From an uncultured Solirubrobacterales bacterium (GTDB lineage Bacteria > Actinomycetota > Thermoleophilia > Solirubrobacterales > JBBDJG01): 64,000 bases of DNA. Where the stretch lies: the NCBI GenBank assembly GCA_963762195.1, contig CAVXJX010000012.1, positions 127,044 through 191,043 on the forward strand, given 5' to 3'. Both the position numbers and the translations under genes were made by a program. The notes under the pieces are model-generated. The model was not told the DNA's origin. It did not search any database and was given only the letters and a program-made list of their open reading frames with translations. Below are positions 1 through 64,000 of the stretch, piece after piece; position 1 is the first letter of the stretch, and each line of letters opens with the position of its first letter.

Positions 1-298
1 GGAGGCCCTGCCTCCTCGCGGCGCTCGAAGCCAAGCTGCTCCAGGGAGCGTCGCGCCATGTGACGCAGCCAGGCCTCGGTCGCCGGGTCGCTCGCCAGCT
101 CGTAGAGGGGCATGACGCCGCTCTGGTCCCCGAGCTCCCCGAGTGCCTTCGCCGCCGCCCCCTGGACGGCCGGAGCCTCATCGCCCAGCGCTCGGATCAG
201 ATGCCGCGTGGCTCGCGGGTCGTGTGTCTCGCCGAGCGCACGCGCAGCCTCCTCGCGGATCCCGGGGTCATCCTCCGCGAGACGGACTGCAAGCTCTT
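1..298 (-). CDS. HEAT/PBS-lyase-like repeat protein (5' portion; runs off left edge; start codon unresolved)
   Basis: The minus-strand frame is open from ~302 to the window edge. It reads ...LAEDDPGIREEAARALGETHDPRATRHLIRALGDEAPAVQGAAAKALGELGDQSGVMPLYELASDP..., which are tandem HEAT-like repeats. It is absent from the ORF track because there is no stop in the window. No ATG/GTG is present near the 5' end. Confidence 0.4.
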
Positions 299-2157
299 CT
301 ACTTCAGCCGCTTCTCCAACTCCTCGAGCTGCTCGCGTAGCTCCTGCGGCAGGCGGTCGCCGAAGCGGGCGTAGTGCTCGTGGATCGTGGGCAGCTCCTG
401 GCGCATTCCGTCCGGGTCGACACGCAGCAACTCCGCCATGTCCTCGGGGCTAACGTCGAGTCCAGTCGTGTCGATGCCGCCGTCGGCGGGCACGAGCCCG
501 GCCGGCGTCTCGACAGCTTCGGCCGAGCCCTCGCAGCGACGGAAGATCCAGGCCAGCACGCGGCTGTTCTCGCCGAAGCCCGGCCACAGGAACTTCCCCT
601 CCTCGTCCTTGCGGAACCAGTTGACGTGGAAGAGCCTGGGCAGCTTGTCGGTGTTCCCCTCGCGACCGATCCGCAGCCAGTGCGCGAAGTAGTCGCCCAT
701 GTGGTAGCCGCAGAACGGCAGCATCGCGAACGGGTCGTAGCGCAGCTTGCCCGACGTCGCCTGATGCGGCGGCCGTGGTCTCGGACGACATGATCGATCC
801 CATGAAGACGCCGTGCTCCCAGTCGAACGCCTCGCGCACGAGCGGGACGTTCGTCGCGCGGCGCCCGCCGAACAGGATCGCGTCGATCGGCACGCCGGCC
901 GGGTCCTCCCATTCCTCGGCGATCGAGGGACACTGGCCCGCGGGAGTCGTGAAGCGCGCATTCGGATGTGCGGCCGGATGATCGGCGTCCGGCGTCCAGT
1001 CCTCACCGTGCCAGTCGATCAGCGTGCGCCGGCGGCTCCTTCGTCATGCCCTCCCACCAGATGTCACCGTCGTCGGTGCGCGCCGTGTTCGTGAAGATCG
1101 AGCACTTGCGGATCGTTGCCATCGCGTTCGGGTTCGTCTTCTCACCCGTGCCCGGAGCGACTCCGAAGAAACCCGCCTCCGGATTGATCGCGTAGAGGCG
1201 GCCGTCCGGGCCGAACTTCATCCACGCGATGTCGTCGCCGATCGTCTCGACCTTCCACCCCGGCAGTGTCGGGATCAGCATCGCGAGGTTTGTCTTGCCG
1301 CATGCCGACGGGAAGGCACCCGTGACGTACTTCGTGTCGCCTTCCGGCGAGGTGAGCTTCAGGATCAGCATGTGCTCGGCCATCCAGCCTTCGTCGCGCG
1401 CCATGATCGACGCGATCCGCAGCGCAAAGCACTTCTTCCCGAGCAGCGCGTTGCCGCCGTAGCCCGAGCCGTAGGACCAGATCTCGCGGCTCGCCGGGAA
1501 GTGCACGATGTACTTGTTCGTCTCGTCGCACGGCCACGGCACGTCCTCGCGCCCGTCCGCGAGGGGATAGCCGACGGAGTGCAGGCACGGCACGAACTCG
1601 CCGTCCTCGCCGAGCACCTCCAGCGCTCCCTTGCCCATGCGGGTCATGATCCGCATGCTGACCGCGACGTACGCCGAGTCTGTGATCTGCACGCCGATGT
1701 GTGCGATCGGAGAGCCCAGCGGGCCCATGGAGAACGGCACCACGTACATCGTGCGGCCCTGCATCGAGCCGCGGAAGAGGTCCTTGAGCGTCTCGCGCAT
1801 CTCGTCCGGATCGCGCCAGTTGTTGGTCGGGCCGGCGTCGGCCTCGCGCTCGGAGCAGATGAACGTGCGGTCCTCGACACGCGCCACATCGCCCGGATCG
1901 GAGCGGGCGAGATAGGAGCCCGGGCGCTTGGCGTCGGACAACGTCTCGAAGGTGCCCAGATCGACGAGCCGCTGACAGAGCGCGTCGTACTCCTCGCCGG
2001 TGCCGTCGCACCAGTGGATCTCGCTGGGCTGGGTCAGGGCCGCGACCTCCTCCACCCAGGCCTTCAGGCGCGAATTGTTCGTCGGGGCTTCCTGCTGCGT
2101 TGTCGCGGTGCTCTCACTCAAGAAAACAGGCTCCTTTGTTGCTGCTGAGGCGGCCAT
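299..2157 (-). pseudogene. pckG: phosphoenolpyruvate carboxykinase (GTP), two frame breaks
   Basis: Pieces in three frames (1003..2157, 450..893 frame, 299..1006 frame) join into one GTP-PEPCK. Motifs include ...[15 protein letters not shown]..., [32 protein letters not shown] and [26 protein letters not shown]. The breaks at ~1023 and ~750 are each repaired by deleting 1 nt. Confidence 0.9.
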
Positions 2158-2195
2158 TCTGCCGCATACACGTCGTTGATTGCGGAATCGGCGGG

Positions 2196-2717
2196 TCAGT
2201 CGCCGGGTGACCTGCGGGGAACCAGCACCGCGCGACGAAAGGTCGCGACGAGCTCGTTGCGCTGGTTGTAGACGTCGGTCCGAACCTTGACCACGCCCCT
2301 GTCGGGCTTCTTGGAGGTCCTCACCTCGAGTACCTCCGACTCCGCGTACAGGGTGTCCCCATGGAACACGGGTGCCGGGTGCGTCAGCTCCTCTGTGGCG
2401 AGGTTGGCGATCGCCTTGCCCGAGACGTCGGCGACCGACATGCCGAGCGCGAGCGAGTAGACCAGGGGGCCGACCACCACGTTCCTGCCCTGCTGTGACT
2501 GCGCGGCGTACACGTCGTTGAGGTGCAGCGGATGGTGGTTCATCGTGATCAGGCAGAACAGGTGGTCGTCCGCCTCGGTCACTGTCTTGGCCGGCCAGTG
2601 CTTGTAGACGGCGCCCTCCTCGAAGTCCTCGAGGTAGCGACCGTAGGGCCGCGCTCCCGAGGCCTCGCGCGAGGCCTGATCGAACGTCGTGCCCTGCTGC
2701 GTGTCCGTCTCTGCCAC
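2196..2717 (-). CDS. MaoC-family (R)-specific enoyl-CoA hydratase/dehydratase (hot-dog fold)
   Basis: Intact 173-aa ORF with ...[20 protein letters not shown]...[16 protein letters not shown]...[14 protein letters not shown]...GVVKVRT, typical of single-domain MaoC dehydratases. Confidence 0.8.
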
Positions 2718-2721
2718 TGGG

Positions 2722-3153: not shown

Positions 3154-3157
3154 CTAG

Positions 3158-3637
3158 ATGTTCAACAAGGAGAAGCGACAAGAAAAGCGCGAGCGGCGTG
3201 AGACCGTGAAGGCGGAGCTCAAGAGGCAGATCAAACCCCGCGAAACCTACTCGGAGCGTATGGCGGGGAAGGAAAAGAGCGAGCAGCGCAGGCCAACGAA
3301 GCCAGACGCCGGGGCGTCGCCAAGGCGCACCTGACCGCGCTCCACAGCGGGAATCCCAGCAAGGATGTGGTGCAGCTGGGCTCCGACCTGCTCTACCTCC
3401 CGGCGCTCTCGAACCTTCAGTTCCAGATCCAGGACCAGCTGACATCCAGTGAGAAGGTGCTACACTCGCTGGACGGTCTACGGCAAGCACGACAAGGAGT
3501 TCCTGGGAATGGCTCCGACCAACCGCGACGTTCAATTCAGCGGGGTATCGATCAGCTTGCTGACCGACGACGCGGTCACCCAGGAGGTCCACTTCTGGGA
3601 CATGGTGGCCCTGCTGCAGCAGATCCAGGCGCCCTAG
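3158..3637 (+). pseudogene. SnoaL/ester-cyclase-like protein with Lys/Arg/Glu-rich N-terminal segment, frame-broken
   Basis: ATG 3158 opens MFNKEKRQEKRERRETVKAELKRQ... (58 codons). The frame of ORF 3367.. gives ...HLTALHSGNPSKDVVQLGSDLLYLPALSNLQFQIQDQLTSSEKV. ORF 3449..3637 gives YTRWTVYGKHDKEFLGMAPTNRDVQFSGVSISLL...HFWDMVALLQQIQAP*. The break at ~3460 is repaired by deleting 1 nt. The join at ~3290 is uncertain. Confidence 0.45.
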
Positions 3638-3675: not shown

Positions 3676-4885
3676 CTAGATCTTGTGGCGCTCCAGCAGC
3701 TTCTTGCCGATCACCATGCGCTGGATCTCGGAGGTGCCCTCACCGATCAGGAGCAGCGGCGCGTCGCGGTACAGGCGCTCGATCTCGTACTCCTTCGAGT
3801 AGCCGTAGCCACCGTGGATGCGGAAGGAGTCCTCGACGACCTCCTTGCCGGCCTCTGACGCGAAGAGCTTTGCCATGCCGGCCTCGACGTCGGAGCGCTG
3901 GCCCGCATCCTTCATGCGGGCCGCCTTGAAGGTCAGCAGGCGAGCGGCCTCGACCTTCGTCGCCATGTCCGCGAGCTTGAACTGGATCGCCTGGTGCTGG
4001 GCGATCGGCTTGCCGAAGGTCTTGCGCTCCTGGGAGTAGCGCAGCGCCAGCTCGAGCGCGCGCTGGGCGATGCCGACGCCGCGCGCCGCGACGTTCACGC
4101 GCCCGACCTCGAGCGCGTCCATCATCTGGCGGAAACCCTGTCCGAGCCCGGCCTCCTCCCCGCCGAGGATCCGGTCCGGCGAGCAGCGGTAGCCGTCGTA
4201 CACGAGCTCCGTGGACTCGACGCCCTTGTAGCCCATCTTCTTGATCTTGGGCGGGATCACCAGACCGGCGTAGTCCCCTGAGTTCTCGGCCGTCCCCGGC
4301 TCCTTCTCCGTGATGAAGCAGGTCATCCCCTTGTAGGGCGGGTCTGCCTTCGTGTCGTTCTTCATCAGCACGAACACGACGCCGGACAGCAGGCCGTTGG
4401 TGACCCACATCTTCTGGCCGTTCAGGACCCAGGCGTCGCCATCCTTGGTCGCGGTCGCCTTGATGCCCTGCACGTCGGAGCCGACCTCGGGCTCGGAGAG
4501 CGAGAAGGCAGCGCGCAGCTCACCGGTCGCCATCTTCGGCAGGAAGTGCTCCTTCTGCTCGTCGGTCCCGAACTTCATCAGCAGGTAGGAGCCGATGAAG
4601 TGGGTGTTGACGACGCCTGAGATCGAGATCCAGCCGCGCGAGAGCTCCTCGACGATCATCGCGTACGTCGTCAGGTCGAGCCCCATCCCGCCGTACTCCT
4701 CGGGGATCGTGACGCCGAACAGCCCGAGCTCCTTCATCTGCTCCACGATCGGCTCGGGGAACTCGTCCTCGTGGTCGTAGTGCTCGGCGTTCGGGAGGAT
4801 CTCCTTGTCGACGAAGCTGCGCACCATCTCGGTGATCGCGCTTCTGCTCGTCGGTTCTGTCCAGAAGCTCGGGGGCTACGGCCAT
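3676..4885 (-). pseudogene. acyl-CoA dehydrogenase, one 5'-proximal frame break
   Basis: The 383-aa ORF is a typical ACAD (...LSEPEVGSDV...WVTNG...IHGGYGYSKEYEIERLYRDA...). The expected N-terminus [15 protein letters not shown](A)ITEMVRSF is split between the 4885 frame and the 4827 frame. Deleting 1 nt at ~4841 restores it. Confidence 0.85.
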
Positions 4886-11068: not shown

Positions 11069-12467
11069 ATGACAATCGAAAGTCACGGGCACCGTGCCCG
11101 CGCCTGAGATCGACCGTCGCCGCGTGGCGGAGCTCACCGCGCAGCAGCGCGAGCTCTTCGCCGAGCGCACCCCAAACTCCGGCGCGTACTTCGAACGCGC
11201 GCGCAAGGTGATGCCGAAGGGCGTGCCCTCCTCCTTCCAGGAGAACGACCCGTGGCCCGTCTACATCGAGCGCGGCAGCGGCGCGCAGGTCTGGGACGTC
11301 GACGGCAACGAGTACATCGACTTCCACAACGGCTTCGGCGTGATGTGCATCGGTCACGCGAACCCCCAGGTCGCAGAAGCCGTCAAGCGGCGTGTCGAGC
11401 TCGGCACCCACTTCGCCGCGCCGACCGAGGGCTCGATCGGCGTCGCCGAGGAGCTGCGCCGGCGTTTCGGCCTGCCGCAGTGGCGCTTCACGAACTCGGG
11501 CACCGAGTCCACGATGGACGGGATCCACATCGCGCGGGGCGCGACCGGGCGGGACATGATCCTCAAGATCGAGGGCTCCTACCACGGGCACCACGACGCC
11601 GTGATGGTGTCCGTCTACCCCTCGCTCGAGGAGCTCGGCGACCGTGAAGACCCGGTCAGCGTCCCGTACGGCGCGGGATACCCGCGCGCGATCACGGAGC
11701 TCACGCGGTCCGTTCCGTTCAACGATGCGGCAGGCGCTGGCGAGCGTGCTGACGCGGCTCGATGGCCAGGTCGCAGCGCTGATCATGGAGCCCGCCATGA
11801 TGAACATCAACATCGTGCCGCCGATCGACGGCTACCTCGACGGACGTGCGTCGGATCACCGCCGAGCACGGCGTGATCCTGATCTTCGACGAGGTCAAGA
11901 CCGGTGCGACGATCTCGCCGGGCGGTGCGACGCAGCGCTTCGGCGTCAGTCCCGACATGGTGGCGCTCGCGAAGGCCAGCTGCGGCGGGCTTCCCGGCGG
12001 TGCGATCGGCATGACGGATGAGCTTGCGGCGGTCGTCGCGGACGGCACCGTCCACCAGTACGGGACGTTCAACGGCAACCCCCTGGTGATGGCGGCCGCG
12101 CACGCGGCCCTGACGGAGGTCTTGACCGACGCCGCGTACGAGCGCCTCGAGTCCATCAACGACCAGCTGCGCCGCGGCTGCGACGAGATCATCGCCCGGC
12201 ACGGGCTCCCCTGCTACACCGAAGGCATCGGTGCCAAGGGCTGTGTGGTCTTCGCCTCGGAGCCGCTGCGCGAGTACCGCGACTACCTCACGAAGGTCGA
12301 CGACGACCTGTCCACGCTCGCATGGCTCTACCACATGAACCACGGCATCTTCATGACGCCCGGCGTCGAGGAGGAGTGGACGCTCTCGATCGCCCACACG
12401 GAGGACGCACGTGCAGCGCTATCTCGACGCGTTCGAGACGTTTGCCGCAGACCTGATGGGGAACTAG
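11069..12467 (+). pseudogene. class III PLP aminotransferase (glutamate-1-semialdehyde aminomutase-like), four frame breaks
   Basis: RBS GGGAGG plus ATG 11069. The segments ...GNEYIDFHNGFGVMCIGHANP..., ...TNSGTESTMDGIHIARG..., ...ALIMEPAMMNINIV..., ...ILIFDEVKTGATI...(Lys), ...YGTFNGNPL... and ...[19 protein letters not shown] are spread over frames 2>0>1>2>0. Breaks lie at ~11092, ~11730, ~11845 and ~12407, and each is a +1 step. Confidence 0.85.
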
Positions 12468-15315: not shown

Positions 15316-16671
15316 CTACAGGACCGGCAGGTACTTCTCGATCTCCCAGGTGGAGAGCTGCGTGCGGTAGTCGTCCCACTCCTGGCGCTTGATCTCGACG
15401 AAGCGCGTGAACACGTGCTCGCCAAGCGTCTTGAGGATCAGCTCCGACTCCGAGGCGATCTCGATCGCCTCACCGAGCGTCTCGGGCAACTGCTCGATGC
15501 CGAGCTTCTTGCGCTCGTCGGGCGACAGGTGGTACAGGTTCCGCTCCATCGGCTCGGGCAGCTCGTAGCCCTTCTCGATGCCCTCGAGACCCGCCTGCAG
15601 AAGTGCCGAGAAGCACAGGTACGGGATTGCAGGCCGGATCCGGGCTGCGAATCTCGCAGCGCGTCGCCTGCTCCTTGCCGGGGTGGTAGAGCGGCACCCG
15701 GATCAGGGCCGAGCGGTTGCGCCGTGACCACGCGACGTACACCGGCGCCTCGTAACCGGGCACCAGGCGCTTGTAGGAGTTGACCCACTGCGCGAACAGC
15801 GCCGAGATCTCGCGTGCGTGCTTGAGCTGCCCGGCGATGAACGACTTCGCGACATCGGACAGGTAGAACTGGTCGTTCTCGTCATAGAACGCGTTGCGAC
15901 CGCCTCTTGAACAGGGACTGGTGCACGTGCATGCCCGACCCGTTCTCGCCGTACAGCGGCTTTGGCATGAAGGTCGCGTAGAAGCCGTACTTCATCGCGT
16001 ACTCCTTCACGGTGATGCGGTACGTCATGCAGTCGTCGCACATCTTCAGCGCGTCCGCGAAGCGCATGTCGACCTCGTGCTGCGACGGGCCGACCTCGTG
16101 GTGGCAGTACTCGACGTGGATGCCGAGCTGCTCCAGCGCGAGCACCGTCTCGCGGCGCAGGTCCGAGCCGGCGTCGAGCGTCGTGAGGTCGAAGTAGCCG
16201 CCCTTGTCGAGCACCTGCGGCGGGCCGCCGCCGGTCTCGGCGGAGCGGAAGTAGAAGTACTCGAGCTCCGGCCCGATGTAGAAGTCGTCGAAGCCCATCC
16301 CCCGCATGCGCTCGAGCGACCGGCGCATCACCCACCGCGGGTCGCCCTCGTAGGGCTCGCCGCCGGGCACCTGCACGTCGCAGAACATGCGGCCGGTCGC
16401 CTTGTCCTCGGGCCGCCAGGGCAGGATGTCGAATGTGGACGGGTCCGGCATCGCGATCATGTCGGACTCCTCGATCGGGTTGAAGCCGGTGATCGACGAG
16501 CCGTCGAAGCCCATGCCGCCCTCGAAGGCGTCTTCCAGCTCCGGCCCTGTTGATGGAGAAGCTCTTGAGCTGGCCCAGGATGTCGGTGAACCAGAGGCGG
16601 ATGAAGCGGACGTCGCGCTCGTCGCAGATTGCGGCTACGTCCTCAGGCGTCTTGGGGGCTTTCTCTGCCAA
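15316..16671 (-). pseudogene. glnA: glutamine synthetase type I, three frame breaks
   Basis: RBS GGAGGA plus TTG 16671. Motifs: MAEKAPKTPEDV...VRFIRLWFTDILGQLKSFSIN | ELEDAFEGGMGFDGSSI...ELEYFYF...HHEVGPSQHE...NGSGMHVHQSLFK | GRNAFYDE...NSYKRLVPGYEAPVYVAWS.RNRSALIRVP... | YLCFSALLQAGLEGI... Breaks at ~16548, ~15905 and ~15622 are each repaired by deleting 1 nt. Confidence 0.9.
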
Positions 16672-16733: not shown

Positions 16734-17042
16734 CTACGTGCCCGAGAACGGACGTGTGCCGGCCACCTCGTGGATGGCGACCTCCGGCGGCACGGACACG
16801 ACCTCGAGCAGGCCCCGCGCGAACTCCCGCAGGTGCGGCTGGGCGAAGTGGCGGTCGAGCGCCTCGCGGTCGGCCCACTCCTCGACGGCGACGAAGCTCA
16901 GCGGATCCTCGACCGCGGCGAAGAATCCGTACCGCATGCACCCCTCCTCGGCGCGCGAGGCCTCCTGCATCCGCTCGAGCAGCGCAACCAGCTCATCGCG
17001 CTTGTCGGCCTCGCACCGGACCCGGCCGATGACCAGCAGCAC
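16734..17042 (-). CDS. antibiotic-biosynthesis-monooxygenase (ABM/Dabb) domain protein
   Basis: GTG 17042 gives VLLVIGRVRCEADKRDELVALLERMQEASRAEEGCMRYGFFAAVEDPLSFVAVEEWADREALDRHFAQPH... The upstream part of ORF 16734..17465 is shadow. Confidence 0.7.
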   Translation of the reverse strand: MLLVIGRVRCEADKRDELVALLERMQEASRAEEGCMRYGFFAAVEDPLSFVAVEEWADREALDRHFAQPHLREFARGLLEVVSVPPEVAIHEVAGTRPFSGT

Positions 17043-17535
17043 TAGATGACTGGTCCTTGCGCTGCCGGTACTCGTCGAGCCCGGCCCGGGCGGTCTTGCG
17101 AACCGATCCGCGGATGATGGGCGTCCAGCCGAGCAGCATGCCCGGGCAGACCCAGCGCCTGCCGCGTCCACGCGTACAGGTCGAAGTCGTCGACGTGCTC
17201 GGCGATCAGCCCGTCCCGGAAGCGGAAGGACGCGCGGATGTCGTTCGTGGACCGGGCGGCCGGTCCGTGCGAAGGAGTAGTGCGGCGACCCAGTGCGCGG
17301 AACCGCGCTCGTCGTCGGCCTCGTGCTCGAGCAGCTCGATGCGCAGGTCCTCGGCCCGCTCGGTGAGCATGCGCCACATGTCGCCCGGCTCGTCGCCGCG
17401 CAGGTCGCGGAAGACGGGGTCGGAGAACGTCGCGTCGGGCGTGTAGCAGGCCGCCATCGTGGCACCGTCGCGGCGACCGAAGGCGGAATAGAAGCGCTCG
17501 ATCAGCTCTTCGTTGGGGGTGGCCATCCGCGCCAC
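17042..17535 (-). pseudogene. NTF2/SnoaL-like family protein, three frame breaks (3' end uncertain, may extend to ~16993)
   Basis: Segments: MATPNEELIERFYSAFGRRDGATMAACYTPDATFSDPVF...SAHWVA | HYSFARTGRPVH | NDIRASFRFRDGLIAEHVDDFDLYAWTRQALGLPG | MLLGWTPIIRGSV... The frame classes step 0>2>1>0 (each +1) at ~17283, ~17245 and ~17140. Confidence 0.6.
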
Positions 17536-17563: not shown

Positions 17564-17864
17564 CTAGCGGAGCCACTCGCAAGCCCATTGGCGCAGCGCG
17601 CCGATGACGGGCTCGAGAGCGCGTCCCTTGGGCGTCAGCTCGTACTCGACTCGCACGGGCGCCCCGTCCCACACGCGGCGGGCCACAAGGCCGGTCGCCT
17701 CGAGCTCCTTGAGCCGCATCGACAGCAACCGGTCCGAGATCTGCGGGATGCCCGGCGGACAGCGCGGAGAACCGCATCGGGCCCGCCAGCAGCGCGTGCA
17801 CGATCGCGCCGGTCCAGCGCTTGCCGAGCATCTCGACGGCCGCGTGGTAGTACGGGACAGACAC
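17564..17864 (-). pseudogene. HxlR-family winged-helix transcriptional regulator, one frame break
   Basis: Reads VSVPYYHAAVEMLGKRWTGAIVHALLAGPMRFSALSAG | IPQISDRLLSMRLKELEATGLVARRVWDGAPVRVEYELTPKGRALEPVIGALRQWACEWLR*. Deleting 1 nt at ~17750 joins the halves. Confidence 0.75.
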
Positions 17865-18001
17865 CCTGAAACGGGACGGGGGGCGCCGCGGATTCGATGT
17901 GGTCCGCGACGCCCCCGGCGTCACCGTTTTGAGGGGAGGGAGAGAGCAACCGGTCCTGCGCCGTCTTGGGTCTGTATCGGCGCCGGATCCGGCATTGATC
18001 G

Positions 18002-19712: not shown

Positions 19713-20066
19713 CTAGGAGCCGGCTTCGAGCCGGCCCTGCTCCTCGGCGGTGCGGTCGGCCCACGGGAACGGCCTCGAGGCGCCCGTCCGGGATCGGCTC
19801 CCCGCTTTCGACGGAGGTGCCGTACGTGCCCTCCTCCAGGCGCTGCTCGGCCCGCTCGATGGCGACGAGCTCCTGCTCCAGACGCGTGATCATGGACTGG
19901 TCGCGCTCGTTCTCGAACAGCTCCGAGCCCGCATCGGCGGTGTGCTGGTCGACACGCGAGAGGTCGTCGTCGCCGTCGCCGCGAGCGGCAGCGCAGCGAG
20001 GCACAGCTCCTCCTGGATTCGCTCGCGTTCTCGTTGCAGCAGCTGTGCGGCTCGGTCTTTGTCCAT
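19713..20066 (-). pseudogene. DksA/TraR-family protein lacking the four zinc-finger cysteines, two frame breaks
   Basis: RBS GGAGG plus ATG 20066. Reads MDKDRAAQLLQRERERIQEEL... | GDGDDDLSRVDQHTADAGSELFENERDQSMITRLEQELVAIERAEQRLEEGTYGTSVESGEPIPDGRLEAVP | WADRTAEEQGRLEAGS*. The break at ~19981 needs 1 nt added; the break at ~19764 needs 1 nt removed. Confidence 0.65.
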
Positions 20067-20125: not shown

Positions 20126-22877
<2,752 letters not shown>

Positions 22878-23905: not shown

Positions 23906-24234
23906 TAGTAGACCTGTAAGCCGGATTCTGTCGTGAGCAACCATCTGTCTGTGCGGCCTACCTGGACCTCAGCGGGCAGCCTCGACGGTCCTGCTTGGCC
24001 TTGCACCGGGTGGGGTTTGCCTCGGCCGCCGTGTCACCACGGCGCCGGTGCGCTCTTACCGCACCATTTCACCCTTACCGGTCACGCCGTTCACGTGTGA
24101 CGGCGCAACTTAGGCGGTGTCGTTTCTGTGGCACTTTCCCGCGGGTTTCCCCGGGTCGGCGCTACCGACCACCCTGCCCTGCGGTGTCCGGACTTTCCTC
24201 GAAGGCTTCACCTCCGCGATTGCTCGGTCTACGA
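23906..24234 (-). ncRNA. rnpB: RNase P RNA, bacterial type A
   Basis: The minus strand contains CGAGGAAAGUCCGGACACC, ACAGAAA, GGUAAGGGUGAAAUGGUGCGGUAAGAGCGCACC, GCAAACCCCACC and ACAGAAUCCGGCUUACAGGUCUAC. P1 pairs GUAGACC (24232..24226) with GGUCUAC (23914..23908). ORFs called here are spurious. Confidence 0.88.
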
Positions 24235-24243
24235 GGGTCAAGT

Positions 24244-25474
24244 CTAGAGACATCGCGCGCCCGGCTCGAGAGCTCTGCCGCCGCCGGCAAGCCGATCACC
24301 ACGCAGAGTGCAGCGCCGCCGGCTAGCGCCAGGCGCATGTGGTCCTCGGTGACGCCGCCCGACAGGGCCGCACCGCCCAGCACCGCGCCGAAGCCGGCGC
24401 CCAGGAGACGCGCGGTGGAGAGGAGCGACGAGACGCGTCCATGCTTGGCCTGCGGCACGGCATTGAGCGCGGCCCGCGAGGCGGGCACGAAGAGCATCCC
24501 GAGCCCGAGCCCGAAGGGCACGAGCGGCGGCAGCGCGCCGATGCCATCGAGCGGAACGCCGGGAATCGCCAGCACGCCGAGCCCGAGACCGGCGAGCCCG
24601 AAGCCCAGCGCCGCGGTGAAGCCCTCGCCGCGGGTATCTACCAGCCGCCCTGCGAACGGCGCGCCGATGGTGACGAGCAAAGCGATCAGCGTGAGCGCCG
24701 CGGCCGCGCCCAGCGCCGAGTAGCCGGACGTACTCTGCAGGTACTGCTGCGCCGATGTAGAACGCGCCGATCATGACGGCGAACGTGAGGGCCGCGACCA
24801 GGGCTGCAGCCGCAACAACCCGCTGGCGCAGTCCCGCCGTATCCGGGCCGGCGTCGACATGCACGTCCGGGACCAGCCGCCACAGCGCCAACGCTGCGGC
24901 GCCGCTCGCGGGAATCAGGAACCACCAGCACGCGCGCCAGTCGATCGCGACCGTCAGCAGGCCGCCCACGACCGGGCCGATCAGGTTCGCGGCACCGGAG
25001 CTCGCTCCCCAGATGCCAAGCGCAGTGCCGCGCCGCTCGGCCGGGAAGCCGGAAACGGCGCCGGCAAGCGATGCCGGGCTGACAAGCCCCGCGCCGACGC
25101 CCTGCACGACGCGCGACGCGACCAGCACCCCGAAGCTCCCTGCCAGCGCGCCGAGCAGCGCCCCGGCGGCGAACACGGCCAAGCCTGCCAGTGCGACGCG
25201 GCGCGAGCCGATGCGGTCGACCAAGGCCCCGCCCGGAAACAACGTGACCGCGTACGCCAGGAAGTAGGCCATGAGCACGTAGGACAGCGCGTGCGAGTCC
25301 GACGTCAAGCTCTTCCCCCACCGACGGCAGCGCGACCGTGACGATCGTGCCGTCCATCTGCAGCAGCGCCGCGGCGCCGGCGCAGGCGGCAAGCCTCAGC
25401 CAGGCATCGCGCGGGATGCCGTCGCCGGCGGAGCCGGGCGAGGCAGCGGGGCGGCCCGAGGACATGCCGGGCAT
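24244..25474 (-). pseudogene. MFS transporter (12-TMS, DHA1-like), at least two frame breaks; 3' end uncertain
   Basis: Segments: ...LLQMDGTIVTVALPSVG | KSLTSDSHALSYVLMAYFLAYAVTLFPGGALVDRIGSRR...QGVGAGLVSPA...FPAERRGTALG... | QQYLQSTSGYSALGAAAALTLIALLVTIGAPFAGRLVD... The breaks at ~25317 (in a C5/G5 run) and ~24752 are both +1. The last frame runs to 24162, into rnpB, so the true stop is probably earlier. Confidence 0.7.
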
Positions 25475-34294: not shown

Positions 34295-35483
34295 ATGAAG
34301 GCAGTTGCGTGGCACGGAACCCATGACGTGCGGGTGGACACCGTTCCGGATCCTGCGATCGAGAGCCCGACCGACGCGATCGTGCGAATCACGTCCACGG
34401 GAATCTGCGGATCGGACCTACACCTCTACGAGGTTCTCGGGCCGTTCATCGACGCCGGCGACATCCTGGGACACGAGCCCATGGGGATCGTCGAGGAGAC
34501 AGGGTCGGAGGTCACGCACATCGCTCCCGGCGACCGTGTCGTCATCCCGTTCAACATCTCCTGCGGGCACTGCTACACCTGTGACAAGGGGCTGCAGTCG
34601 CAGTGTGAGACGACGCAGGTACGCCAGCAGGACACCGGTGCGGCGCTGCTCGGCTACACCAAGCTCTACGGGCAGGTTCCCGGCGGCCAGGCCGAGTACC
34701 TGCGGGTTCCGCAGGCACATTACGGCCCCATCAAAGTCCCGGAAGGCCCGCCCGATGACCGGTTCGTCTACCTGTCGGACGTCCTGCCCACGGCCTGGCA
34801 GGCGGTCGAGTACGCCGACGTCCCGGACGGCGAGACCGTCCTGGTGCTCGGCCTCGGGCCGATCGGGGAGATGTCGACCCGCGTCGCCCAGCATCGCGGC
34901 GCCGGACAGGTAATCGGCGTGGACCTCGTGCCCGAGCGCCTGGAGCGGGCCAGATTGCACGGCGTGGAGACGCTCGACATCGAGGCGCACGACGACCTCC
35001 CCGCAGTCGTGCGCGAGATGACCGGCGGCCGCGGACCGATCTCCGTCATCGACGCCGTCGGCATGGAGGCGCATGGGTCACCCATCGGCAAGTTCGCCCA
35101 CAGGATCGCCGGGATGCTGCCGGACGCCGTGGCCCGCAAGATGATCGAGACCGCCGGCATCGACCGCCTCGCGGCGCTGCACATGGCGATCGAGCTGGTT
35201 CAACGGGGCGGCAACGTCTCGCTGTCCGGCGTCTACGGCGGCGCGGCAAGTCCGATGCCGCTGCTCCAGATGTTCGACAAGCAGATCAACCTGCGCATGG
35301 GACAGGCCAACGTCAAGCGCTGGATCCCCGAGATCCTGCCGCTGCTGTCCGGTGACGAGGATCCCGCTCGGAGTCGACGGCTTCGCGACGCACCGGCTGC
35401 CTCTGGACGATGCTCCCCACGCTTACGAGATCTTCCAGAAGAAACAGGATGGGGCGTTCAAGGTCCTGCTCCAGCCCGCGTAG
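34295..35483 (+). pseudogene. zinc-dependent alcohol/formaldehyde dehydrogenase family (MDR), one 3'-proximal frame break
   Basis: RBS AGGAGG plus ATG 34295. Motifs: MKAVAWHG...TGICGSDLHLY...GHEPMGIVEE...CGHCYTCDKGLQSQC...LGLGPIGEM... Deleting the g at ~35366 restores ...LSGDEDPLGVDGFATHRLPLDDAPHAYEIFQKKQDGAFKVLLQPA* with the stop at 35481..35483. Confidence 0.85.
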
Positions 35484-49233: not shown

Positions 49234-50147
49234 CCGAGCTTGCCGTGCACCGGGTCGGCGCGCAGCGGATGGGCTTCTTCACCGACACGACCGTGTGCAT
49301 CGGCTGCAAGGCCTGCGAGGTCGCATGCAAGCAGTGGAACGACCTGCCTGCCGACGGGCCGAAGTCGCGCAAGGGCGGCTCATACGACCACACCGGCGAG
49401 CTGTCCGCGTCGACCTGGCGCCACGTCCGGTTCCTGGAGCTGCTCGAGCCATCAGAGGAGCGCCGCGCCCAGGCCGCCGAGGCACTCGCCGCCGGTGAAG
49501 GCGGAGCGGCTCCCACGCTTCCCGCGGACGAAACGTTCGACGTCGCGCAGGCAGTTGCCGACATGGATCGCTGGATCTTCATGTCCGACGTGTGCAAGCA
49601 CTGCACGAACGCCGGCTGCCTCGACGCGTGCCCGACCGGCGCGCTGATCCGCACCGAGCACCACACCGTCGTGCTGCAGGCCGACGTGTGCAACGGGTGT
49701 GGTTACTGCATCCCGGCATGCCCGTTCGGAGTCGTCGACCGCGACCACATCGACGGCCGGGCCGGCAAGTGCACGCTCTGCTACGACCGGCTGCAGGACG
49801 GGCTCGAGCCCGCGTGCGCGAAGGCATGCCCGACGGACTCGATCCAGTTCGGCCCCTACGACGAGCTCGTCGCGGTCGCCGAGCGGCGGGTGGCCGCACT
49901 GCACGAGCGCGGCGAGCAGGGCGCGTACCTGTACGGCGCCGGGGACGAGCCGGACGACGAGCTCGCCGGCGGGCTCGGTGCGTTCTTCCTGCTGACCGAG
50001 CCGCCGGAGCGCTTCGGCCTCCCGGCCAATGCCGAGTCACCCGTGCAGGAGAACGTCGTCCCCGCGACCGTCGCGGCGCTCGGCGCCGGGTTGCTGGCGG
50101 CAGCCGGCGCCGTGGTCGCGTTCGCGAGCGCCCGGAGGCGCCCGTGA
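49230..50147 (+). CDS. fdhB: formate dehydrogenase iron-sulfur (beta) subunit, 4x[4Fe-4S], C-terminal TM anchor
   Basis: GTG 49230 overlaps the fdhA stop (GTGA). Motifs: ...CIGCKACEVACKQWN..., CKHCTNAGCLDACP, CNGCGYCIPACP, CTLCYDRL...ACAKACP. The C-terminal helix reads VVPATVAALGAGLLAAAGAVVAFA. Confidence 0.88.
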   Translation: MTELAVHRVGAQRMGFFTDTTVCIGCKACEVACKQWNDLPADGPKSRKGGSYDHTGELSASTWRHVRFLELLEPSEERRAQAAEALAAGEGGAAPTLPADETFDVAQAVADMDRWIFMSDVCKHCTNAGCLDACPTGALIRTEHHTVVLQADVCNGCGYCIPACPFGVVDRDHIDGRAGKCTLCYDRLQDGLEPACAKACPTDSIQFGPYDELVAVAERRVAALHERGEQGAYLYGAGDEPDDELAGGLGAFFLLTEPPERFGLPANAESPVQENVVPATVAALGAGLLAAAGAVVAFASARRRP

Positions 50148-51348
50148 GCAAGCGGCGCGACATGACCCCGGCGACCGGCTCGCGCGGGGAGCCGGCTCGT
50201 GGCGCGCGGCGGTCGAGGGCGAGGACGTCGCACTCGCGCGCCCGCGTTCGGCGACGCGCGCGAGTCGTTCCTCTACGGGCCCGACACGCGCTACAGCGGC
50301 GCGGAGCCGCAGCCGGGCCAGGTCGCCGCGGCAAATCGCCGGATGCGCAGCGAGCGCGGCCGGCCGACCTGCGCGGGCCGTTCCTGAAGGCGCCCGTGTG
50401 GACCTGGGAGGTCCGGCTGTACTTCTGGCTCGGCGGTGTCGCGTCGGGATCGGCGTTCGTCGCGCTGGCCGCCGACCTGGCGGGCGACGAGCGCTCGGCC
50501 GCAGTCGCGCGCAAGGTCGCGCTCGCCGCCGTCGTGCCGGCACCGGCGCTGCTGATCTCCGACCTCGGCCGCCCGGCGCGCTTCCTCAACATGCTGCGCG
50601 TCTTCAAGCCGCGGTCGCCGATGAGCCTCGGCGCCTGGTGTCTGGCCGCGTTCAGCTCGGTCGGCGCGGCGGCCGTCGGCGCCGACCTGCTCGGGCGGCG
50701 TCGCACCGCGCGGAGCCTGGGCGCGGTCAACGCGCTGCTCGGCGGCTACCTCGGTTCCTACGCCGGCGTTCTGCTCGCAGCGACCGCCGTGCCGGTGTGG
50801 GCCCGCAGCCGCATCTTCCTCGGGCCGATCTTCGTCGCGACCGCGACGGCGACGGGCGCGGCCGCGACGCGGCTCGCGCTGACCGCGACGGGCCAGGCCG
50901 AGGACCATCCGACGCGCATCGCGCTCGCCCGCCTGGAGACCGCCGCGATCCTGACCGAGCTGGCGCTGTCGGCGGTGAACGAGCGCCGGCTCGGCCGCGT
51001 GGGCGACGCGTTGTCCGAGGGCGCGGCGGGCCGGCAGTTTGCCACCGCGAAGGGACTCGTCGGCGGCGGCCTTGCGCTCGGGCTGGTCGGCGGGCGGCCG
51101 CCGGGCGCAACGTGACCGGCGTCCTCTACCTCGCCGGCGGGCTGGCGTTCCGGATCGCCTGGGTCGAAGCGGGCAGGGCATCCGCCCGCGACGACGAGGC
51201 CGTCGCGCTCACGGCGCGCGGCCCGCAGCAGCGCAAGGCCGCCGACAATCGCCCGTCACGGGTACCCGCTCGTGCGCCCCTACGCGTTTGGAGCCGCACG
51301 ATCGGCCGGGCGAGCCTCGCGGTGGAGCGGTTGCTGCGACGACCTTGA
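50144..51348 (+). pseudogene. NrfD/PsrC-like membrane anchor subunit, frame-broken (N-terminus unresolved)
   Basis: GTG 50144 overlaps the fdhB stop. The core reads ...LRGPFLKAPVWTWEVRLYFWLGGVASGSAFVALAA...RFLNMLRVFKPRSPMSLGAW.... The typical C-terminus VTGVLYLAGGLAFRIAWVEAGRASARDDEAV lies in another frame, and the break at ~51095 needs 1 nt added. The first ~80 codons are Arg-rich in every frame and could not be resolved. Confidence 0.65.
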
Positions 51349-51420: not shown

Positions 51421-52921
51421 CTAGGCGGCCTCGGAGTACGCCGGCTCCAGCGCCAGCTCCTGCTCGGGCTCCTCCTCGACCGCCGTGACCGCCGCGGGCT
51501 CGAGCACCGTCACCGCGATGACGATCGCCGCCGCCACCAGGCCCGCGGCGACGCCGAAGGCGAGGTGGAAGCCGCCGGTCAGCGCAGCGGCGTTCGAGGC
51601 GCCGCCGTCGAGCAGGGTCCCGGTGCGGCTCGTCGCGAGCGTCGCCAGCACGGCAAGACCGATCGCCCCGCCGACCTGCATGCTCGTGTTGACGAGGCCG
51701 GATGCCAGCCCGGAGTCGCTCTGCGTCGCGCCCGACATGGCGAGCGTCGCCATCGCCGGGAACGCGATTCCCGCGCCCAGGCCGAGCAGGACCATCACCG
51801 GCAGGACGTCGGCGACGTAGCTGCCGTCCACCGGCGCCTGCGTGAAGAGCAGGAGCCCGGCGACGATCAGGAGGAGGCTGGGAACCAGGGTCGTCCGGGC
51901 GCCGAACCGCATCATGAGGCGGGCGGAGAACCCGAGCGACAGCGCCCCGATGAGGACGGCGACCGGAAGGAACGCGAGCCCGATCTCGAGGGCGTCGTAG
52001 CCCAGGACGTCCTGCAGGTACAGGGTGCCGAGGAAGAACATGCCGAACATCCCGGCGACCATCAGCATCTGCACCACGTTGGCGCCCGAGACGTTGCGCG
52101 AGCGGAAGATCCGCAGCGGCATGAGCGGGTTGGCCGTGCGCGCCTGGCGCACGACGAACCCGGCCAGCAGCGCGAGCGACACCGCGCCGAAGCCGAGCGT
52201 GCGCGCCGGACGTCCAGCCGTAGTCGCCGACCTCGAGGATCGTGTAGACGCCGAGCATCAGGGCCGTCGTGACCAACAGCGCCCCGAGCACGTCGGCGCC
52301 ACGGCCGAGCCCGATGCCCTTGTCGTCTTCGACAAGCCGCAGCGCAAGCACCGCGGTGGCGATGCCGATCGGCAGGTTCACGAAGAAGATCCAGTGCCAG
52401 TTGAGGGCCTCGGTCAGCACGCCGCCCGCCAGCAGCCCGATCGAAGCGCCGGCCGCCGCGATGAAGCTGTAGACGCCGATCGCCTTCGCCTGCTCCCCCG
52501 GCTCGGGGAACATCGTCACGATCATCCCGAGGATCACCGCGGACGTCATTGCACCACCGACCCCCTGCAGGAACCGCGCGCCGATCAGCATGCCCTCGGT
52601 CTGGGCCAGGCCGCAGAACAGCGACGCCGCGGTGAAGATCGTCAGGCCCGCCATGAACATGCGCCGGCGGCCGATCAGGTCGCCGATGCGCCCGGCCAGC
52701 AGCAGCAGGCCGCCGAACGCGATCAGGTAGGCGTTCACCACCCACGCGAGGTTCGCCTGCGAGAAGCCGAGATCGCTCTGGATCGCCGGCAGCGCGACGT
52801 TCACGATCGCCGAGTCCAGGATGATCATGAGGAATCCGGCGCACAGCACGTAGAGGGCGAGCCAGCGCGCCCGCTCGCCGCGGTCCACCGAGGGTTGAAG
52901 CGTTGCGACGGTCCCGCTCAT
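51421..52921 (-). pseudogene. MFS transporter, 14-TMS DHA2/EmrB-QacA type, one frame break
   Basis: ATG 52921 gives MSGTVATLQPS...WLALYVLCAGFLMIILDSAIVNVALPAIQSDLGFS...AGRIGDLIGRRR... | RTLGFGAVSLALLAGFVVRQARTANPLMPLRIFRSRN... Deleting 1 nt at ~52205 joins the halves. Confidence 0.82.
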
Positions 52922-53196: not shown

Positions 53197-53527
53197 ATGC
53201 CGACCCAGACGACCACCGAGATCCCCCACCCCACTCGCGCCGAGCTCGAGCTCGGCGCCGTGCTGCATGCGCTCAGCGATCCGGTGCGCCTGAAGATCGT
53301 CGCCGCGCTGGCCCGCGCCGAGGACGGGCCGCCGCAGACCTGCGGGAGCTTCGACGTACCCGTATCGAAGTCAACGTGCACCCATCACTTCAAGGTGCTC
53401 CGGGAGGCAGGCGTGATCCGCCAGGAGCCCGAGGGCACCACGCGCCTGAACACGCCTGCGGCGCGACGACCTCGACGCGCGGTTCCCGGGCCTGCTCGAG
53501 ACGATCCTGCAGTCCGCCCCGGCTTAG
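53197..53527 (+). pseudogene. ArsR/SmtB-family HTH regulator, one frame break; divergent from the MFS gene
   Basis: Reads MPTQTTTEIPHPTRAELELGAVLHALSDPVRLKIVAALA...CTHHFKVLREAGVIRQEPEGTTRLNT | LRRDDLDARFPGLLETILQSAPA*. Deleting the c at ~53455 restores the frame. Confidence 0.75.
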
Positions 53528-56537: not shown

Positions 56538-56937
56538 ATGCCCACATGGGAAGACGTGGTGGAGATCGGCACCGGATTCCCGGGAGTCGAGACGTCGCAC
56601 GTCCTACGGCACCCCGGCGCTGAAGGTGAAGGGCAAGCTCATGTGCCGGCTGCGCACCGACCCCGACGCGCTCGTGGTGCGAGTGCTCGACCTCGCCGAT
56701 GCCGCGAGGCGCTGCTGCAGGGCAGCCCCGAGGTGTTCTTCACGACCCCGCACTACGACGGCTATCCCTACGTGCTGGTGCGGCTCGAGGCGGTGGACCG
56801 GGTCCAGCTGCGCCGAGCTGCTGGAGGACGCCTGGCGGATCCGCGCCCCCAAGCGCCTCGTCGCCGAATACGAAAGACCGTCAGGCAAACTGATCCGCCA
56901 ACCACGACAGTCAGGAGCGCGACATGGCAACACGTAA
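56538..56937 (+). pseudogene. MmcQ/YjbR-family protein, three frame breaks
   Basis: Segments: MPTWEDVVEIGTGFPGVETS | TSYGTPALKVKGKLMCRLRTDPDALVVRVLDLAD | EALLQGSPEVFFTTPHYDGYPYVLVRLEAVDRVQL | AELLEDAWRIRAPKRLVAEY... Breaks lie at ~56598 (+1), ~56704 (-1) and ~56811 (+1). The 3' end is uncertain. Confidence 0.6.
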
Positions 56938-57355: not shown

Positions 57356-57369
57356 GAGCGTGCTCCCAC

Positions 57370-61624: not shown

Positions 61625-61626
61625 GC

Positions 61627-62094: not shown

Positions 62095-62663
62095 GCAAGT
62101 CGCAGTACTACTGCGCGGCCTCCCTCGACGGATACATCGCCGAGTCGGACGACACGCTCGAGTGGCTGATGAAGTACGAGGGCAGCTTCGAGGGCGAGGG
62201 TGTCGAGCCGGGGAAGGGCTCCTTCCAGCGCTTCTACGACGGCGTCGGCGCGCTGGTCATGGGATCGGCCACCTACGAGTTCGTCCTCGCCCACGAGGCC
62301 GCAGGTGGCGAATGGCCGTACAAGGGCAAGCCGACGTGGATCCTGACCTCCCGCGACCTACGCCGGCTCGAGGGTGACGGCGTCGACATCAGGTTCGCCG
62401 CCGCCGCCGTCGCCGATCTCTACGACGAGATGATCGGGGCCGCCGGCGAGCGCGATTTGTGGGTTGTCGGCGGCGGCAACGTCGCCTCCCAGTTCGCCGA
62501 CCAGGGCCTGCTCGACGAGGTCATCGTGACGGTCGTTCCCGTCGTGCTCGGCGAGGGCAAGCCGCTGTTCGATCGCCGCGTCCCTGGCGGCGCGATGCAG
62601 CTCGCTGGAACCCGCACGTTCGACACCGGCATGGTCGAGCTGCGCTACGAGCTCAAGCGGTAG
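62091..62663 (+). CDS. dihydrofolate-reductase-like (RibD C-terminal domain) family protein
   Basis: TTG 62091 overlaps the cupin stop (TTGA). Reads ...YYCAASLDGYIAESDDTLEWL...GALVMGSATYEF...LWVVGGGNVASQFADQGLLDEVIVTVVPVVLGEGKPLF... 190 aa. Confidence 0.8.
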   Translation: MSKSQYYCAASLDGYIAESDDTLEWLMKYEGSFEGEGVEPGKGSFQRFYDGVGALVMGSATYEFVLAHEAAGGEWPYKGKPTWILTSRDLRRLEGDGVDIRFAAAAVADLYDEMIGAAGERDLWVVGGGNVASQFADQGLLDEVIVTVVPVVLGEGKPLFDRRVPGGAMQLAGTRTFDTGMVELRYELKR

Positions 62664-63585
62664 CGCCCACCGGCAGCTCGAACGACACGCCGGTGAGCTC
62701 CTCGGAGACCTGCCACAGGCGCCGCGCGGCGGCCTCGTCGCGGGCCGCGCTGCTCGACCCGACCCGTTCGGGGTATCCGCGCTGCTCGGCGATCCCGTCG
62801 GGACCGATGTACTGGCCGCCCTCGGCGGCCGGGTTGGTGGCGGCGTAGAGCTGCGACAGCACGCCGACCTCGACGCTCTGCGCCACGAGGCGGTTCGTCA
62901 CCACCATCACCAGCCGGTCCACCATCGGTGCCGCGGCCTTCTGCAGGTTCGTCGCGGAGTACCCGGGGTGCGCGCCGATGCTCCGGATCCGGGACCCGGC
63001 GCCGCGCAGGCGGCGATCCAGCTCGAAGGCGAACATCAGGTTCGCGAGCTTCGACTGTCCGTAGGCACGCCAGCGGTTGTAGCGACGCTTGCTCTGCAGG
63101 TCGTCGAACTTGATCCGGCCCATGCGATGCGCCCCGCTGCTGACCGTGACGACGCGAGCGCCGTCGTGCTCCATCGCCCCGATCAGGAGGGCGGTGAGGG
63201 CGAAGTGGCCGAGGTGGTTGGTGCCGAATTGGAGCTCGAACCCGTCTGCCGTCTCGCGGCGCGGCGGCGCCATCACGCCGGCGTTGTTGACGAGGATGTC
63301 GATGCGCCCGTGCTCGCCGCGGACCCACTCGGCAAAGGCCCGCACCGAATCCAGGCTGGCCAGGTCGAGCGTCGCCACCTCGATCCTCGCGGTCGGGTCA
63401 CCGACCCGTATCTCCGTGGCAGCCGCCGCACCCTTGGCCGTGTCGCGACACGCGAGCACGACCTGCGCGCCCTTGCGGGCAAGCTCGCGCGTCGTCTCGA
63501 GCCCGAGGCCGCTGTTGCCCCCGGTGACGACGGCAATCCGCCCGCTCTGGTCAGGAATCTGGTCGCTCGTCCACTTCGCGCTCAT
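62653..63585 (-). CDS. short-chain dehydrogenase/reductase (SDR, retinol-dehydrogenase-like)
   Basis: Intact 310 aa with VVTGGNSGLGLE (TGxxxGxG), LVNNAG, and the catalytic S...YGQSK (YxxxK). Confidence 0.88.
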   Translation of the reverse strand: MSAKWTSDQIPDQSGRIAVVTGGNSGLGLETTRELARKGAQVVLACRDTAKGAAAATEIRVGDPTARIEVATLDLASLDSVRAFAEWVRGEHGRIDILVNNAGVMAPPRRETADGFELQFGTNHLGHFALTALLIGAMEHDGARVVTVSSGAHRMGRIKFDDLQSKRRYNRWRAYGQSKLANLMFAFELDRRLRGAGSRIRSIGAHPGYSATNLQKAAAPMVDRLVMVVTNRLVAQSVEVGVLSQLYAATNPAAEGGQYIGPDGIAEQRGYPERVGSSSAARDEAAARRLWQVSEELTGVSFELPVGATA

Positions 63586-63656
63586 GCCGGCTCCTCGCTC
63601 GCTTGCTTTGGCGCGGACCCTACTCCCGTCCGATCAGGGGTGCACCATGGCGACGC

Positions 63657-64000
63657 ATGCTGAAGGCTCCTCGGACCGGCACCGTCATCGTCGGACTGCT
63701 CGCGTCGACACTCGTCGTCTTCGCCGGCGCCATCCCGGCCACGGCCAAGACGACCAGCTTTCGGACGCCTTCGCGGAACATCTACTGCCTCTACTCCACG
63801 AGCGGGCAGTCAGGCGCCTTCATACGTTGCGACGTGCTGTCGCTGAACGACGTCGGCTTCGTGCTGGAGCGACGCAAGCGAGCGCGGCGAGTCAAGATCA
63901 CCGACACCGTCACTGACCCGCGGAAGGCGCGTGACCTCGCCTATGGGACGTCGCGGCGATTCGGGTCGTTCCGGTGCATCTCGCGAACGAGCGGTCTGAC
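63657..64000 (+). CDS. secreted hypothetical protein (5' part; runs off right edge)
   Basis: ATG 63657 gives MLKAPRTGTVIVGLLASTLVVFAGAIPATAKTTSFRTPSRNIYCLYSTSGQSGAFIRCDVLSLND... The frame is open to the window end with a signal-peptide-like N-terminus. It is not in the ORF track because there is no stop in the window. Confidence 0.45.
   Translation, partial: MLKAPRTGTVIVGLLASTLVVFAGAIPATAKTTSFRTPSRNIYCLYSTSGQSGAFIRCDVLSLNDVGFVLERRKRARRVKITDTVTDPRKARDLAYGTSRRFGSFRCISRTSGL

Follow-up and report, generated by a model that had tools for sequence, protein, structure and literature searches.

Many conserved genes interrupted by frameshifts are found in Mycobacterium leprae and in recently host-restricted bacteria, and the locus described here is like them in this respect. 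However, true decay such as that of M. leprae brings nonsense mutations, deletions of many sizes and a deletional bias, none of which is seen here, and it also brings a loss of codon bias and breaks that are common within a lineage, neither of which is seen here. Real bacterial pseudogenes in general are said to show this deletional bias, a finding credited to Mira, Ochman and Moran in 2001. The locus also resembles low-coverage Nanopore/Flye metagenome assemblies, in which indels of 1 to 2 nt split conserved genes into false pseudogenes and in which these indels are clustered, are private to each assembly and are absent from the short-read contigs of relatives. Flye-style contig names in sister records are a further point of likeness. 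One Nanopore-only pipeline for soil metagenome-assembled genomes (MAGs), consisting of Flye in meta mode and one round of Medaka, yielded many Solirubrobacterales MAGs with contig_N names, and coverage-linked Nanopore errors were reported in the same work (PMC12313526).

Frame breaks in 16 genes

The window, which is the whole 64-kb stretch of DNA that we analyzed, comes from a soil actinobacterium, on a Solirubrobacterales-like NCBI/ENA contig of 304.7 kb. A six-frame codon-usage Viterbi scan gave 20 same-strand frame switches away from stop codons; the other 15 Viterbi switches have a stop at the junction and mark normal gene boundaries. Frameshift-aware protein-to-DNA alignment to intact orthologues, together with nucleotide alignment to L085 (an independent ENA contig about 95% identical to the window over 48.4 to 62.7 kb), raised the total to 35 frame breaks in 16 of the roughly 60 genes. 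They comprise 28 insertions of one base, 3 of two bases and 4 deletions of one base, which is 31 insertion events versus 4 deletions, every one of them 1 to 2 nt long. An earlier note on this DNA had reported about 30 breaks, mostly 1-nt insertions, in about 16 genes; its gene number and its predominant type agree with ours, while its break count was slightly low. Our tblastn matches of the locus open reading frames were filtered, and without composition correction spurious high-GC matches dominated. The same aligner detected no frameshifts in 19 control genes of the window (4,532 residues, 13.6 kb) and therefore does not invent breaks. The positions listed below may be off by a few bases unless the L085 alignment fixes them exactly.

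302..2121, minus strand: pckG (GTP PEP carboxykinase); extra single bases near 1020 and 752
3158..3634, plus strand: SnoaL-type polyketide-cyclase-like gene; extra base near 3472, putative deletion-type switch at ~3284 (Viterbi)
3679..4885, minus strand: acyl-CoA dehydrogenase (ACAD); extra base near 4840, severing the first ~15 codons
9521..11030, plus strand: acyl-CoA synthetase (AMP-binding); extra base at 9599
11091..12461, plus strand: class-III aminotransferase; extra bases at 11730, 11842 and 12407
15319..16671, minus strand: glnA (type I glutamine synthetase); extra bases at 16545, 15905 and 15625
16740..17526, minus strand: SnoaL_2/ABM fusion gene; extra bases at 17283 and 17147, missing base near 17071
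17567..17995, minus strand: HxlR-type regulator; extra bases at 17947, 17856 and 17756
19719..20066, minus strand: DksA/TraR-like zinc-finger protein; extra bases at 20003, 19990 and 19767
20132..22877, minus strand: acnA (aconitate hydratase); extra base near 21617
24204..25414, minus strand: MFS transporter (24-25 kb); extra bases at 25303 and 24750
34295..35480, plus strand: Zn-dependent alcohol dehydrogenase (ADH); extra base at 35363
50144..51345, plus strand: NrfD-like membrane subunit; missing bases at 50198 and 50239, two extra bases each at ~50355-50361 and ~51098-51101
51424..52921, minus strand: MFS transporter (52 kb); extra base at 52204-52208
53197..53518, plus strand: ArsR-family regulator; extra base at 53454-53455
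56538..56894, plus strand: YjbR-family protein; extra bases at 56598, 56701 (2 nt), 56811-56813 and 56877

After repair, the proteins are full length and 73 to 97% identical to intact orthologues, their Pfam matches run unbroken across the junctions in HMM searches (e.g., MFS_1 3-347/347), and the Viterbi scan shows strong codon usage on both sides of every junction. For PckG, 606/606 residues align to P0174 with 92% identity and two 1-nt insertions, and the repaired protein matches PEPCK_GTP 1-357/357 in one stretch. For GlnA, 450/450 residues align to P0001 with 95% identity and three 1-nt insertions (Gln-synt_C 2-344/344 once repaired). AcnA aligns over 914/914 residues with 83% identity and one 1-nt insertion, the repair of which extends its Aconitase match from 11-317 to 11-463/463, and the ADH aligns over 395/395 residues to the JGI L088 ADH with 95% identity, also with one 1-nt insertion. 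Residues 5-497 of L083 ACS500 align to the acyl-CoA synthetase with one 1-nt insertion (repaired AMP-binding match, 2-384/384), and the ACAD orthologues L003, L007 and L008 (74 to 79% identity) align over a single 1-nt insertion at 4837-4840. The aminotransferase passes through frames 3, 1, 2 and 3; it is 83% identical to an intact 465-amino-acid JGI protein, and repair joins its Aminotran_3 match into one stretch. The DksA-like protein aligns over 113/115 residues to an L083 protein (73% identity), and the three HxlR sites are identical with two references, L081 (88% identity) and L083 (68% identity). The break positions in the SnoaL_2/ABM gene are probable assignments of lower confidence, the reference L081 being itself error-prone. 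In the cyclase-like gene, the SnoaL match (53-126/126) covers the junction at 3472; no reading frame yielded the N-terminal half of this domain, and the switch at ~3284 is a candidate. The proposal in the earlier note to add one base at ~3290 coincides with this switch, which is a putative one seen by the Viterbi scan.

Gene by gene, some of the earlier counts change. We find three breaks rather than four in the aminotransferase, three rather than one in the HxlR gene, three rather than two in the DksA-like gene and four rather than three in the YjbR gene; the "1 or more" given for the NrfD-like gene amounts to four. The base thought to be missing at ~19981 in the DksA-like gene is better explained by two 1-nt insertions 13 nt apart, and those at ~51095 and ~56704 by 2-nt insertions. 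A five-base run near 25317 had been singled out as a homopolymer exception, but this G5 run keeps the length that it has in relatives, the extra base being ~14 nt downstream.

The coding sequence under the breaks is undamaged. As had been claimed, there are no premature stops (0 in-frame stops when the broken genes were aligned protein to DNA, over 5,340 residues), nor were nonsense substitutions or larger indels seen in the broken genes of the window; codon bias is kept, and identity is high after repairs of 1 to 2 nt. Real, recent pseudogenisation in a decaying lineage would account for the presence of so many breaks, in 16 genes, in the deposited sequence. However, the 31:4 insertion bias is opposite to the deletional bias of bacterial pseudogenes, the repaired proteins are 92 to 97% identical to intact close orthologues, and genes of core metabolism are struck repeatedly, with three breaks in glnA, two in pckG and one in acnA. 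The bias toward 1-nt insertions, the lack of stops and the undiminished codon usage therefore argue against real decay, which we regard as very unlikely.

Intact genes in relatives and private breaks in sister contigs

L085 is intact at all 10 window breaks in the 50- to 57-kb region, and the extra bases of the window sit exactly at the predicted junctions in the nucleotide alignment. Once repaired, the NrfD-like and YjbR proteins are each 93% identical to their intact L085 counterparts (400 and 116 amino acids, respectively). The 52-kb MFS transporter aligns over 499/499 residues to the intact L085 protein with 97% identity and carries one extra C in the nucleotide alignment; in the ArsR gene, the L085 protein of which is intact (109 amino acids), one extra C splits a GGG run. 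The reverse is also found: the MMPL gene is intact in the window and has 6 to 7 private extra-base events in L085, and the RibD_C gene is intact in the window while L085 is without bases that the window has. That a contig 95% identical to the window has these genes intact, and has different breaks of its own, is a further point against pseudogenisation. This check against near-identical sequence covers 10 of the 35 breaks, and the others were checked through orthologues with 68 to 95% protein identity. We found no assembly closer than about 95% identity. A search of metagenome contigs with the acyl-CoA synthetase returned no short-read contig of the same species (best match, 83%), and a search of genome contigs with the DUF255/thioredoxin protein returned no close reference (relatives at ≤63%, with partial synteny).

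These comparisons also bear on programmed recoding, in which ribosomal frameshifting or transcriptional slippage would allow the broken genes to be expressed. The 35 sites have no common slippery motif, up to four of them fall in one gene, every relative has its orthologue in a single open frame at each of these positions, and the sites are not conserved even in L085. We consider recoding to be extremely improbable.

The nearest ENA relatives bear contig_NNNNN names, which is the Flye style. We aligned four ENA sister contigs (L081, L082, L086 and L087) from the neighbouring accessions ERZ25039541, ERZ25039536 and ERZ25039504 to the intact proteins that JGI contigs encode in the corresponding syntenic cluster. 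Their one-base insertion/deletion ratios are 25:2, 28:2, 22:2 and 74:16 (149 versus 22 in total), and protein-to-DNA alignment shows no stops in any of the four. At the nucleotide level, isolated 1-nt insertions and deletions relative to L083 number 43:6 in L082 and 31:5 in L086. All sister contigs with Flye-style names bear this signature, and the JGI contigs that cover the gene cluster are intact and free of it; a JGI-to-JGI control (L084 versus L083) has 0 indels in 12.3 kb. Decay would be expected to leave breaks common to close relatives, but the positions differ between the window, L085 and the sister contigs, and the sister contigs mostly differ from each other as well, a few hot spots aside. 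Nanopore errors are usually described as homopolymer deletions, as in a passage of PMC9262707. In contrast, insertions dominate here by far, and in L082 and L086, the only two sister contigs alignable base by base, about 75% of the added bases have no identical neighbouring base and so lie outside homopolymers.

Probable consensus error and the clustering of breaks

Based on the intact genes of relatives, the insertion bias, the absence of stops and the kept codon usage, we conclude that the frame breaks are very probably consensus errors of a long-read metagenome assembly and that the "pseudogenes" are false, which bears out the preference of the earlier note for a poor consensus over gene decay. 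The genes are predicted, from these sequence comparisons, to be intact in the organism itself. The evidence suggests Nanopore reads that were put together with Flye, received little polishing and were too few in places. The consensus caller would then leave spurious single bases, now and then a pair of them or a one-base gap, at a rate of about 2 per kb where read support is poor and not at all where it is good. Gene callers accordingly break about 16 genes of the window into fragments and out-of-frame tails. The Nanopore platform is presumed, and the evidence that ties the source record to any project or platform (contig naming, neighbouring ERZ accessions and taxonomy) is circumstantial. The ERZ250395xx accessions may belong to the Microflora Danica long-read project; the accession occurs in no paper text searched.

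The breaks are clustered, as the earlier note had stated, rather than uniformly spread. Their dispersion index in 4-kb bins is 2.41 versus 0.95 in simulation (P about 0.002), and the median spacing is 539 nt versus 1,255 nt (P about 0.00015). From 25.4 to 50.1 kb there is a single break, that in the ADH gene at 35363, versus 13.8 expected (P = 1.5e-5). The intervals 25.4-35.3, 35.5-50.1 and 57-64 kb are free of breaks. Low local read depth is the probable cause of this clustering. A different kind of artefact, in which co-occurring strains of ~95% identity are merged and the polisher leaves indels where they differ, would explain clustering by a means other than low depth. Divergence between the window and L085 is a mosaic, from 100% identity down to about 92% per 500 nt, and the window indels in the 50- to 57-kb region all fall in bins of about 96.4% identity or less, with none in the bins of 97.4 to 100%; related strains also clearly co-occur in the samples. 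However, strain-specific segments covered by fewer reads would be expected to give this correlation too, and the extra bases are mostly away from obvious strain indels. We therefore view collapsed strains as a possible but rather doubtful source of the errors. Under consensus error at low depth, such segments may recruit fewer reads than segments common to the co-occurring strains.

Consequences for annotation and recurrent break sites

The breaks are an artefact without biological novelty, and their value is solely that of an annotation warning. As had been anticipated, the deposited gene calls of the source contig already include the fragments, among them a 210-amino-acid piece of GlnA and a 262-amino-acid piece of the 24-25 kb MFS transporter. 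In stretches of poor support, the public record thus shows about 16 genes per 64 kb, including glnA, acnA and pckG, as falsely fragmented, and their pieces have already entered protein databases. Work built on such MAGs, be it pseudogene counting, metabolic reconstruction or protein clustering, will be distorted, and homopolymer-focused quality checks would miss clustered single-base insertions outside homopolymers.

A few break sites recur between contigs. GlnA is broken at residue ~347 in the window, L086 and L087, and AcnA at residues 383-387 and 437-440 in L081, L082 and L087. Recurrence of a few sites across sister contigs fits systematic error, and real frameshift variants shared in the population are a less likely explanation. 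There is a slim chance that these sites mark a sequence- or modification-specific basecalling error that could bring to light a DNA-modification motif of this uncultured lineage of Solirubrobacterales. No convincing sequence motif was found at the insertion sites of the window or of L082 and L086. Identical insertion contexts do occur in L082 and L086, for example, ATGCGC[G]CTTCGG, with the inserted base in brackets.

Frame breaks in the window and in its deposited gene calls

The real genes of the window have a third-position G+C of ~0.9, so their reading frame is easily tracked. A codon-usage Viterbi model with six frames and a non-coding state, run on the window, made 35 direct same-strand frame switches, 15 of which fall on a stop codon and simply mark the border between two genes, while the other 20 lie away from stop codons. 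When the pieces were joined, they gave single end-to-end Pfam matches spanning the junctions for PEPCK_GTP (1-357 of 357) and Gln-synt_C (2-344 of 344), and the Aconitase match, which is 11-317 before repair (removal or addition of bases to restore the frame), is 11-463 of 463 after it. Joining also gave matches across junctions to two MFS_1 domains, Aminotran_3, AMP-binding and SnoaL (53-126 of 126).

Events were totaled from a purpose-written frameshift-aware protein-to-DNA aligner, with intact orthologues from related contigs as queries, and from nucleotide alignment to L085, an independent, ~95% identical ENA contig. Across 16 genes this yields 35 events, namely 31 insertions (28 of one base and 3 of two) and 4 single-base deletions; the deletion near 3284 is putative. 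The frameshift-aware alignment contains no in-frame stop codons across 5,340 aligned residues, and 19 control genes from the window, 4,532 residues in all, showed no frameshift with the same aligner. The frame breaks described in the earlier note (~30 in ~16 genes) are thus confirmed by the Viterbi model, the aligner and the L085 alignment. Its coordinates hold to within a few bases, except in acnA and at the MFS junction near 25317, where the aligner puts the events ~14 to 20 nt from the stated sites. The note undercounts slightly in HxlR, DksA, NrfD and YjbR, and in the aminotransferase it has one break too many. The break near 25317 had been read as a homopolymer exception, but the G5 run there is equally long in relatives. 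Programmed frameshifting is excluded, since no motif is common to the sites and at every site there are intact orthologues in a single frame.

The window's ORFs are, by exact protein look-ups, the deposited gene calls of one 304,700-bp NCBI/ENA contig, and among them are pieces of glnA (210 aa) and of an MFS transporter (262 aa), along with an ADH (Zn-dependent alcohol dehydrogenase) whose C-terminal tail is wrong. Because these fragments are themselves on record, the frame breaks belong to the deposited sequence and annotation. The G+C content is 64 to 76% per 2-kb bin (typically ~69%), with a local drop to 64% at 2000-4000, especially 3150-3420. The ORF preceding the SnoaL-like cyclase fragment is rich in Lys, Arg and Glu and differs from the rest of the window, and the N-terminal half of the SnoaL domain of the cyclase-like gene was not found in any frame. 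The window has one tRNA gene (tRNA-Leu). A conserved DUF255/thioredoxin protein places it in the Solirubrobacterales (Thermoleophilia), with only ~63% protein identity to the best species-representative genomes.

Intact and fragmented relatives

Repaired GlnA used as a query retrieved intact 450-aa proteins of 92 to 95% identity on contigs that are syntenic with window positions 6-26 kb in reverse orientation. In three JGI contigs (L083, L084 and L088), all genes are intact: MFS transporter (419 aa), AcnA (914), DksA (115), HxlR (145), GlnA (450), aminotransferase (465), acyl-CoA synthetase (500) and ADH (395). An IS481-family transposase adjoins the ADH gene in L088 (6544-7512). Four related contigs come from ENA, under neighboring analysis accessions:

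L081 and L082, ERZ25039541, ENA, contig_N name
L086, ERZ25039536, ENA, contig_N name
L087, ERZ25039504, ENA, contig_N name

The gene calls of these four are visibly fragmented. Against the intact JGI proteins, their one-base insertion/deletion counts are 25:2, 28:2, 22:2 and 74:16, with no stops, while a JGI-to-JGI control alignment has no one-base indels. At the nucleotide level, isolated 1-nt insertions and deletions relative to L083 number 43:6 in L082 and 31:5 in L086, and about three-quarters of the inserted bases have no identical neighboring base, which exactly matches the odd signature first noticed in the window, insertions mostly outside homopolymers.

Break positions mostly differ among the four ENA contigs. 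Some recur: GlnA residue ~347 in the window (near 15625), L086 and L087; AcnA residues 383-387 and 437-440 in L081, L082 and L087; and Trx residue 291 and SucD residue 154 in L082 and L086. The latter two contigs also share an identical insertion context, ATGCGC[G]CTTCGG, and a near-identical one, ATCACG[C]GCCGG. This recurrence in independent contigs suggests systematic error hot spots.

Reciprocal indels in a near-identical contig

L085 (ERZ25039550 contig_94583, 11.2 kb) encodes a 297-aa ABC ATPase identical to that of the window and aligns at ~95% identity to 48.4-53.5 and 56.5-62.7 kb. NrfD (400 aa), the MFS transporter (499), ArsR (109) and YjbR (116) are intact in L085, and relative to it bases are added or missing in the window exactly where junctions were predicted in these genes. 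L085 in turn has private indels: 6 or 7 events add bases to its MMPL gene, and its RibD_C gene lacks two bases. Both genes are whole and full length in the window. The two are independent assemblies, and in each, genes that the other has whole are interrupted by private insertions, mostly of one base. Assembly error predicts this reciprocal pattern and gene decay does not.

Real pseudogenization of the broken genes is disfavored by this pattern and on several other grounds. Real bacterial pseudogenes are reported to have a deletional bias (Mira, Ochman and Moran 2001), whereas the bias here is toward insertions; there are neither stop codons nor larger indels, codon bias is still intact, and glnA, acnA and pckG are struck repeatedly. 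The assembly-error interpretation of the earlier note is therefore supported, and the frame breaks are no biological feature. Their value is as a caution: false fragments are already in the public record and in protein databases, and errors of this type would slip past homopolymer-centered checks.

Between ArsR and YjbR, ~3 kb of the window (53528-56535) is absent from L085; it holds at least three genes, one of them encoding a histidine kinase (HisKA_3/HATPase_c, minus strand, 55176-56423), and is a strain-level insertion or deletion. A non-coding G16 homopolymer at 57370-57385 is 12 Gs shorter in L085 (a 12-base alignment gap), within a poorly aligned stretch (57.35-57.73 kb), and could be a further consensus artifact or a real variable tract.

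Clustering and cause of the breaks

Compared with 35 events placed randomly into coding positions, the breaks are clustered. The dispersion index in 4-kb bins is 2.41, against a random mean of 0.95 (P ~0.002), the median spacing is 539 nt rather than 1,255 nt (P ~0.00015), and 25.4-50.1 kb contains 1 event where 13.8 are expected (P = 1.5e-5). Genes in clean stretches, among them tkt, zwf/opcA/pgl, fdhA and the MMPL gene, have full-length domain matches.

The breaks most likely arose when the consensus was called from too few long reads. A Nanopore-only pipeline for soil MAGs, which ran Flye in meta mode and a single Medaka round, yielded many Solirubrobacterales MAGs with contig_N names, and its authors noted coverage-linked Nanopore errors (PMC12313526), and we infer that the source contig of the window is also Nanopore derived. 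Local read depth may underlie the clustering. Identity to L085 is a mosaic, from 100% down to ~92% per 500 nt, with the window's indels in the more divergent bins, which would fit strain-specific segments recruiting fewer reads; strain collapse during polishing fits equally. Substitution identity is 99 to 100% at 58.0-60.0 kb and 92 to 96% at 50.0-53.5 and 56.5-57.5 kb, and the mosaic across 48400-62700 is consistent with recombination among strains that co-occur.

The fdhA-like molybdopterin oxidoreductase gene (45925-49230, plus strand) is in one frame, with a single in-frame TGA at 46555-46557 (Q-A-R-I-[TGA]-H-S-S-T-V). Molybdop_Fe4S4 lies upstream of this codon and Molybdopterin and Molydop_binding lie downstream; judged from sequence, it looks like a putative selenocysteine codon rather than a defect.
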